From Escherichia coli (GTDB lineage: Bacteria > Pseudomonadota > Gammaproteobacteria > Enterobacterales > Enterobacteriaceae), in the NCBI RefSeq assembly GCF_024700885.2, contig NZ_CP117016.1: a DNA stretch of 64,000 nucleotides; one strand, 5' to 3'. The translations under genes and the position numbers were made by a program. Each line of letters begins with the position of its first letter. Within the stretch, counting starts at the first letter, position 1. Shown here piece after piece: positions 62,099 through 63,659 of this stretch. The notes beneath the pieces are model-generated. The model was not told the DNA's origin. It ran no database searches and worked only from the letters and a program-made list of their open reading frames with translations.

Positions 62099-62187
62099 TG
62101 CCGGATGCGGCGTCGCCTTATCCGGCCGATAAAATGTGATAATTCAATAAATTGTGATTCATTTCTTAGGCCTGATAAGACGCGTCA
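62099..62187. repeat. BIME: one intact REP unit plus the left half of a second unit that is split by the IS
   Basis: gccggatgcggcgtcgccttatccggcc, then ggcctgataagacgcgtca abutting the IS left end. Confidence 0.6.
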
Positions 62188-62238
62188 TGAACTGCACCCC
62201 AAATGTTGGACATAATCTGACATCTGAAGGTGCAGTTT

Positions 62239-62760
62239 ATGAAACATTCATTTGAAGTAAAACTTGCCGCTGTAAATCATTACCTGGCTGGTCATGCAGG
62301 CATCATTTCTACGGCAAAACTCTTTCAACTTTCTCACACCAGCCTCTCACACTGGATTAATCTTTTTCTTCTTCACGGTCCTCGGGCACTGGATTGCAGA
62401 CACAAGCGTAGCTATTCTCCTGAAGATAAACTTTGCGTGGTTCTTTATGCTCTCGGGCATTCTGAGTCTCTACCCCGGGTAGCTGCCCGGTTTAATATTC
62501 CCAGCCACAACACGGTTAAAAACTGGATAAAAGGCTACCGCAAATCTGGTAATGAGGCCTTTATCAGGCGCAGGAAGGAGAAAAGCATGACCCGTTCTGA
62601 TGATACCCATGAAAACGAGGCAAACATGACGCCGGAAGAGATGAAGAATGAGCTGCGTTATCTTCGCGCAGAAAATGCATATCTGAAAGCCATGCAGGAG
62701 CATCTCCTGGAAAAAAAGCGCCAGGAGCTGGAGAAAAAACGAAAGTCATCCGGAGCCTGA
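62239..62760 (+). CDS. IS3-family transposase OrfA (HTH DNA-binding, leucine-zipper C-terminus)
   Basis: ORF 62230..62760; ATG at 62239 preceded by SD gaagg; the motif LAAVNHY resembles IS150-group OrfA. Confidence 0.85.
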   Translation: MKHSFEVKLAAVNHYLAGHAGIISTAKLFQLSHTSLSHWINLFLLHGPRALDCRHKRSYSPEDKLCVVLYALGHSESLPRVAARFNIPSHNTVKNWIKGYRKSGNEAFIRRRKEKSMTRSDDTHENEANMTPEEMKNELRYLRAENAYLKAMQEHLLEKKRQELEKKRKSSGA

Positions 62761-63587
62761 GGTGCGGACACTGCCAGCCTGACCTGTTAAAGGCTGCAGG
62801 GCTGGCCAGAAGCACGCTGTACTACCAGCTGTCACTGCAGAAGGCTAAGGACAAGTATGCTGATGTGAAACAGCTCATAGCCTCCATCTTCCATGAACAC
62901 CGGGGATGTTATGGGTACCGGCGGATCCATTGTGAGCTTCAGAAAAGAGGTCTTAAGTTCAGTGGCAAAACGGTGCGAAAACTGATGCAACAGCTCGGCC
63001 TGAAGTCTCCTGTGCGCCTGAAGAAATACCGGTCTTACCGGGGAAATATGGGACTCACTGCAGAAAATATCCTTCAGCGGCAGTTCAAAGCGGAAGCTCC
63101 CTGTGAGAAATGGGTGACAGATATCACCGAATTCAGGGCTGGCGGACAAAAACTGTACCTGTCCCCGATACTTGATTTGTTTAACGGGGAAATCGTGGCG
63201 TGGGAAACGGCCTGCAGGCCTACAGAGGAGCTGGTGAAGCGCATGTTAAATAAGGGGCTGGAAAGCCTTGCTGAAGGGGAGAAACCGCTGCTCCACAGTG
63301 ATCAAGGATGGCATTACCGGATAAAAAGTTATCAGTCCGCCCTGGCGGACAGAGGGTTAGTGCAGAGCATGTCGCGCAAGGGCAACTGCCTTGATAATGC
63401 GGTAATGGAGAACTTCTTTGGTCACCTGAAAGAAGAAATGTACTATCGCCGGGACTACAGAAATGTAGAAGAGCTGGAAAATGCCGTTAACGAATACATA
63501 ACTTACTGGAATCAAAAAAGAATAAAACTCAGTCTTGGGGGACTCAGTCCGGTAGAATACCGGACTGAGCATCAAAAAGCCGGTTAA
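62715..63587 (+). CDS. IS3-family transposase OrfB (DDE integrase core); probably expressed as an OrfAB fusion by -1 frameshifting
   Basis: Frame open from 62715 to 63587; ORF track begins at the GTG at 62865; DDE residues in WVTDITEF, HSDQGWHY and NAVMENFFGHLK; slippery heptamer A_AAA_AAG at 62712..62718. Confidence 0.85.
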   Translation, partial: KAPGAGEKTKVIRSLRCGHCQPDLLKAAGLARSTLYYQLSLQKAKDKYADVKQLIASIFHEHRGCYGYRRIHCELQKRGLKFSGKTVRKLMQQLGLKSPVRLKKYRSYRGNMGLTAENILQRQFKAEAPCEKWVTDITEFRAGGQKLYLSPILDLFNGEIVAWETACRPTEELVKRMLNKGLESLAEGEKPLLHSDQGWHYRIKSYQSALADRGLVQSMSRKGNCLDNAVMENFFGHLKEEMYYRRDYRNVEELENAVNEYITYWNQKRIKLSLGGLSPVEYRTEHQKAG

Positions 63588-63659
63588 CTGAAACTGTCCA
63601 GGTTTTGGGGTTCAGTTCAGTCAGCGTCGCATCAGGCATCAGTGCACAACGACGAGCTA

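Follow-up and report, generated by a model that had tools for sequence, protein, structure and literature searches.

The stretch of Escherichia coli DNA analysed here (64,000 nucleotides of contig NZ_CP117016.1, hereafter the window) almost certainly holds a complete IS1397 element, a member of the IS3 family and its IS150 subgroup, that has transposed into the GTCA loop of a Z-type palindromic unit (PU) between smrB and a yfcO-type gene. Sequence inspection places the 1432-bp element at 62188..63619, and the features of the region are collected in Table 1. The two neighbouring genes are convergent, with a BIME between their 3' ends; the element starts 103 bp past the smrB stop and its other end lies 41 bp from the yfcO stop, so that no coding sequence is interrupted by the insertion. 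This location between smrB and a yfcO-like gene, given in an earlier note on the same DNA, matches the RefSeq annotation of identical DNA. Whether the insertion alters how stable the 3' ends of transcripts from smrB or the yfc operon are is a matter of speculation.

Table 1 Features of the IS1397 insertion and its surroundings (window coordinates)
Feature	Coordinates	Strand	Basis
smrB, intact upstream gene	61533..62084	+	ORF; RefSeq 'endonuclease SmrB' on identical DNA
Y-type PU, intact, gccggatgcggcg-t-cgccttatccggc	62100..62126	+	Sequence; PU motif scan; sub-threshold Rfam naRNA4 (REP-derived RNA) match
BIME linker with aattcaataaattg, L-motif/IHF-site-like	62127..62169	.	Sequence
Left half of split Z-type PU (gcctgataagacgc) and first GTCA (62184-62187)	62170..62187	-	PU motif scan; empty-site genomes
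IS1397, complete, 1432 bp	62188..63619	+	100%-identical full-length copies in many E. coli genomes annotated IS1397 family; boundaries from empty sites
IRL, starts TG	62188..62212	+	21/25 match to IRR
orfA, 173 aa	62239..62760	+	Two HTH_28 domains; heptad-rich C-terminal region; RefSeq CDS uses same ATG
A AAA AAG slippery heptamer, predicted -1 programmed frameshift site	62712..62718	+	Frame analysis; fusion protein match
orfB part of OrfAB transposase	62718..63587	+	HTH_21, rve, rve_2; DD(35)E triad
IRR, ends CA	63595..63619	-	Inverted-repeat match to IRL
Right half of split Z-type PU (gcgtcgcatcaggc) and second GTCA (63620-63623)	63620..63637	-	PU motif scan; empty-site genomes
StfH/YfcO-family fimbrial adhesin gene, 3' end, runs off window, undisrupted	63660..64000	-	RefSeq annotation of identical DNA; ORF list
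Intact Z-type PU, comparison unit, gcctgataagacgcgCCAgcgtcgcatcaggc	43975..44006	-	1 nt different from rebuilt target

Anatomy of the element and its target site

The element has TG...CA ends. Its left terminal inverted repeat (IRL) is TGAACTGCACCCCAAATGTTGGACA and the reverse complement of its right end (IRR) is TGAACTGAACCCCAAAACCTGGACA; over 25 bp the two match at 21 positions, and the similarity is gone past position 25. No further copy of either end sequence was found within the 64-kb window. A 4-bp target duplication, GTCA, directly flanks the element on both sides. The earlier note had described a 1432-bp element with 25-bp imperfect inverted repeats between two GTCA copies, and all of these were recovered at the positions in Table 1. 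They also match the length (about 1.43 kb) and the 25-bp inverted repeats that we take to be the published values for IS1397.

Removal of the element and of one GTCA rebuilds gcctgataagacgc-GTCA-gcgtcgcatcaggc, in which a loop of 4 nt separates two arms of 14 nt. Apart from the AA/GC bulge that PUs characteristically have, the arms pair throughout. PUs are imperfect extragenic palindromes of about 30-35 bp that recur through the genome, often as pairs of alternating orientation, and by their consensus GCC(G/T)GATGCG...CTTATC(C/A)GGC the rebuilt 14+4+14 nt target is a PU/REP. The duplicated GTCA is exactly the loop of this unit, and the insertion therefore lies at the PU centre, as had been claimed. 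The further claim that the rebuilt unit is nearly identical to an intact one at 43974..44008 also holds, the two differing by a single base, with the comparison unit bounded here at 43975..44006.

The split unit is the Z-type member of a two-PU BIME of the Y-linker-Z form. Its linker contains aattcaataaattg, presumably the IHF-binding L motif of BIME-1, and the same motif adjoins PUs at mgtA/ridA, at yaaA/yaaX and at the K-12 relic described below. A second Y+Z pair lies in the window at 43923-44006, among further PU motifs; altogether, PU half-motifs cover only a few hundred bases of the 64 kb. The intact Y-type PU at 62100-62126 is unusual in having 1 nt between its 13-nt arms, versus about 2-4 nt in the other sampled PUs. 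It was the Z-type PU beside it, whose 4-nt loop is normal, that the IS entered.

Transposase, frameshift and family assignment

A GAAGG Shine-Dalgarno sequence precedes the orfA ATG. orfB lies in the -1 frame relative to orfA, in a frame that is open from about 62652 to 63587, and the A AAA AAG heptamer at 62712-62718 sits in the X XXY YYZ register. The OrfAB fusion predicted from a slip at this heptamer is 449 aa long and is exactly the NCBI protein WP_260834445.1, which carries the IS1397 name; its fusion junction, LLEKKAPGAGEK, is common to all members of the protein cluster. A second A-run (62734-39) was considered as the slip site and rejected, since it does not fall in the X XXY YYZ register and the protein collection lacks its product. 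Folding of 62705-62830 for a frameshift-stimulating RNA structure gave z = -1.6, which is not significant, and no frameshift-element family of Rfam matched, the only hits being sub-threshold naRNA4 matches on the Y-type PU. A simple scan of 61900-64000 returned no sigma-70-like promoter.

The fusion scored 385.3 bits against NCBIfam NF033516 (transpos_IS3 equivalog), for which the cut-off is 160, and covered profile positions 1-369 of 369. Pfam domains on the transposase comprise two HTH_28, one HTH_21, rve (7e-21) and rve_2 (2.5e-20). The catalytic triad comprises one D in WVTDITEF, another in LHSDQG and an E in AVMENFF that 35 residues separate from the second D; this DD(35)E arrangement is conserved in alignment with IS150 InsK, IS3 InsF and IS2 InsD. 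The IS3-family assignment proposed in the earlier note is borne out by the NF033516 score, the Pfam domains and the triad, as well as by the -1 position of orfB with its A AAA AAG heptamer, the TG..CA ends and the 4-bp duplication.

Against three K-12 representatives, which make up the whole of the subgroup comparison (IS150, IS3 and IS2), OrfB is 51.6% identical to InsK of IS150 (E 3.5e-110) and 32% identical to InsF of IS3 (E 2.6e-33), and it gives no hit to InsD of IS2 at E<1e-3. We place the element in the IS150 subgroup because of these OrfB identities and because its inverted-repeat cores resemble those of IS150, in keeping with the earlier expectation of an IS150-group relative. The likeness to IS1397, also noted before, agrees with the IS1397 family name that NCBI gives to the identical protein, and RefSeq labels 100%-identical copies 'IS3-like element IS1397 family transposase', with a programmed frameshift noted. 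The name IS1397 rests on NCBI annotation rules and on agreement with published properties. The window copy is apparently functional, to judge from its intactness and from its 100%-identical sister copies.

Empty and occupied alleles across E. coli

The flanks 61700-62187 and 63624-64000 were joined into an 865-bp empty-site query, which was searched in 5426 complete E. coli genomes. E300010 and UID2309220033 each gave a single ungapped 100% match, and two further genomes matched at 98.6-98.8%. Since the joined flanks are uninterrupted in other genomes, the segment 62188..63619 is an insertion accompanied by a 4-bp duplication. The occupied site (query 61700-64000, 2301 bp, same 5426 genomes) was found in 25 genomes, 24 of which match at 99.8-100% over the 2301 bp. 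The insertion marks a lineage and not one strain. The earlier description of a strain-specific insertion is accordingly upheld by the empty sites as regards the insertion, and fails as regards the single strain, the insertion being common to 24 near-identical genomes.

The smrB/yfcO spacer exists in three forms. The first, in K-12 MG1655 (L014 1659-1728), has no PU and is accompanied by a divergent, DUF2544-annotated yfcO. The second, in E. coli 042 and about 560 other genomes (L020 585-655), has one Z-type PU, which in the empty 042 allele has the loop TTCA (L020 600-632). The third, the Y+linker+Z form of the window (62085-63659), occurs in 28 genomes, 24 occupied and 4 empty. K-12, which the earlier note had named for the empty-site check, was discarded as a reference, its 70-bp spacer being unrelated and without a PU; the informative empty sites are those of close relatives and of E. 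coli 042.

Strain 2012C-4221 (L008) carries IS1397 in the single-PU smrB/yfcO allele, at the same position and in the same orientation as the window copy. Its duplication is TTCA, and its IS is 98.46% identical to that of the window, with 22 positions different. This copy represents an insertion event of its own in the orthologous smrB/yfcO PU. In UID2309220033 the smrB/yfcO site is empty, yet a 100%-identical msrQ/zinT copy is held in common with the occupied genomes, and from this pattern we infer that the smrB/yfcO insertion is younger than the msrQ/zinT copy. The variation at smrB/yfcO, with 0, 1 or 2 PUs and PU alleles with or without IS1397, provides a lineage marker usable for typing.

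Copies elsewhere and their targets

Full-length copies of the 1432-bp element are present in 1707 of the 5426 genomes, many of them 100% identical to it. PU targeting was assessed in a sample of 15 copies at 13 loci, made up of the window copy and 14 copies from other genomes; nine of the latter were chosen without flanks in the query and are thus free of bias from flank similarity (L003, L004, L006 and L023-L028), and five came from a query that included flanks (L008, L009 and L011-L013, with L008 being the smrB/yfcO locus). All 14 further copies are intergenic. They lie at msrQ/zinT (twice), rrf/mobB, rrf beside an IS110-family pseudogene, mgtA/ridA, yaaA/yaaX, yjcO/yjdM, yhaL/cyuA, preA/mglC, ygcP/ygcQ, hemW/yggM, ruvB/znuB, downstream of tRNA-Pro, and at smrB/yfcO in the second lineage.

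Every one of the 15 copies sits at a PU centre, with a duplication of 4 bp in nine copies, 3 bp in five and a degenerate one in the last. Given this count and the rarity of PU motifs in the window, chance is excluded, and the earlier reading of a PU-targeted insertion is supported both by the empty sites and by the sampled copies. Both orientations relative to the asymmetric PU were seen, in 8 versus 7 of the 15 copies, figures to be read with the fact that a flank-including query, from which five of the 15 came, favours copies in the window orientation. A strict orientation bias relative to the PU was rejected on this 8/7 split. The sample agrees with PMC1525189 (citing Clement 1999 and Wilde 2001, 2003) and PMC3184786, according to which the REPs/PUs of E. 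coli and of related enterobacteria are the specific targets of IS1397 and this specificity is set by the transposase itself.

In AST240 (L003) and AVS0935 (L025), whose copies are 100% and 99.1% identical, respectively, to the window copy, IS1397 has entered the msrQ/zinT PU at the same three bases (AGC/GCT) but with opposite orientations. This pair shows that one target was used independently twice, with no fixed orientation. As a sign of hot spots, two PUs that were each hit repeatedly are no more than suggestive; were the roughly 500 PUs per genome equally likely targets, about 0.1-0.2 coincidences would be expected in the sample. It is possible, if rather unlikely, that some PUs are strongly preferred and that target capture needs chromosomal context beyond the PU sequence, for example an extruded hairpin between convergent transcripts or BIMEs bound by IHF or gyrase. 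What points this way is that smrB/yfcO and msrQ/zinT were each hit twice at the same nucleotides, together with the near-absence of the element from plasmids.

Alternative explanations

We consider it extremely improbable that the element is some other IS3-family member, IS150 or an unnamed relative, lying in a PU by coincidence. Its inverted-repeat ends do resemble those of IS150 and its OrfB is clearly homologous to InsK; however, the OrfB identity is only 51.6%, that of OrfA to InsJ is only 27%, and there is essentially no nucleotide similarity, while NCBI names the identical protein IS1397 family. Coincidence, for its part, is ruled out by the PU centres occupied by all 15 sampled copies. 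The same sample speaks to the idea that the PU-like halves are part of the mobile element and not a pre-existing target, which we dismiss outright. BLAST matches of some other copies do reach beyond the IS into flanking DNA (query 398-1938), as that idea would have it, but these extended matches are PU-to-PU similarity; the flanking halves vary by locus (Y-type, Z-type and variants) with the IS in both orientations, and IS-free genomes have uninterrupted PUs at the same site.

Another route to the same allele would be its import, ready-made, by homologous recombination or transduction from a lineage already carrying IS1397 at this PU. IS1397 is nearly all chromosomal, and its spread between lineages must therefore often use chromosomal recombination; moreover, a second occupied allele does exist in 2012C-4221. 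That allele, the only other one occupied, nevertheless differs from the window allele in three respects (a one-PU BIME, the TTCA duplication and the 98.46% identity of its IS), the window allele has flanks that match the empty allele of close relatives at 100% identity over 865 bp, and its IS shows the same full identity to the further copies in the genomes that carry it. Import is on this evidence very unlikely, and transposition of IS1397 into the resident PU is the reading that we retain.

Proposed mechanism and relation to known systems

By analogy with the biology of the IS3 family, a -1 ribosomal slip on A AAA AAG would fuse OrfA (HTH, DNA binding) to OrfB (DDE core), yielding the OrfAB transposase. 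Transposition would follow a copy-out/paste-in route via a figure-eight or circular intermediate, in which a copy is excised as a circle, and the circle would then integrate through cuts around the PU loop that are offset by 3-4 bp, giving rise to the duplication. PU recognition would reside in the transposase, as the literature holds. As to timing, the insertion took place within a single lineage of E. coli, which by then had already gained its msrQ/zinT copy.

Published IS1397 is like the window element in having an E. coli host, an almost entirely chromosomal distribution, IS3-family membership and a programmed frameshift. It likewise inserts inside PUs of BIMEs with small duplications (Bachellier et al. 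1997 and Clement et al. 1999, as cited in PMC1525189). In these properties there is no substantive difference between the two, and smrB/yfcO is one more natural site. IS150 (K-12 insJ/insK) has the same architecture, with an HTH orfA, an A AAA AAG slip site and a DDE orfB, and it is close in length (1443 bp vs 1432 bp), in its inverted-repeat cores (TGtACTGCACCC...GTTGGAC) and, at the 51.6% identity given above, in OrfB. It differs in its OrfA (only 27% identical), in the lack of nucleotide-level similarity and in not being PU-specific; in CFT073, one of its two copies is near a REP (Tobes and Pareja, PMC1525189).

ISKpn1, an IS3-family element of Klebsiella pneumoniae, is described in PMC1525189 (citing Wilde 2001, 2003) as related to IS1397 and likewise PU-targeting, with the type of PU that is hit depending on its transposase. 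Host and PU type both differ from those of IS1397. REP sequences are also insertion targets of IS621 and ISPpu9, of the IS110 family (PMC3184786, PMC12288879). These two differ from IS1397 in using an unrelated DEDD-type recombinase, in entering a specific sequence beside or in the REP and not the loop by a DDE staggered cut, and in being without terminal inverted repeats or a duplication of the IS3 kind.

The element and its targeting of PU loops have been known since 1997-2003, and the finding is correct but ordinary. Its value lies mainly in annotation, in that a mobile element is labelled and the smrB/yfcO region is shown to be variable within E. coli. Mildly new are only the points that the same PUs are used repeatedly, that plasmids are nearly free of the element, and that K-12 and BL21 contain a 65-bp relic.

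Plasmids, relics and degraded copies

In complete E. coli genomes, 7606 chromosomal places of IS1397 stand against 7 on plasmids. Among 72,556 PLSDB records, no full-length IS1397 was found on a true plasmid. Three full-length PLSDB hits were rejected as plasmid copies, the records being 0.7-4.9 Mb long and evidently chromosomes, and three real plasmids hold only a 194-bp fragment (query 694-887) at 94% identity.

In about 1780 of the 5426 genomes, among them K-12 MG1655, BL21(DE3) and MC1061, all that is present of IS1397 is its final 65 bp, at 95.4% identity. This relic lies between yhhI (an ISAs1-like ISEc1/H-repeat transposase) and yhhJ, and was seen in BL21(DE3) (L021 1201-1290; NC_012892.2 3487902-3487966) and in K-12 MG1655 (L022). 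Its last bases, ...gggggtcagttca, adjoin TAAAcgccttatccggcc, which forms the right half of a Y-type PU and is itself followed by aattcaataaattgca. Strains regarded as being without IS1397 therefore retain its truncated right end, still attached to the PU half, and the ISEc1 element has apparently replaced the remainder of IS1397 at this place.

A degraded copy of another kind is found downstream of rrf in strain AVS0096 (L026), where the IS1397 copy of 1431 bp is labelled in the annotation as a pseudogene with a frameshift. Some 240 bp downstream of it comes another pseudogene, for a transposase of the IS110 family. The IS110 family includes the REP-targeting IS621, and two REP-seeking types of IS may thus share one BIME region at this locus.
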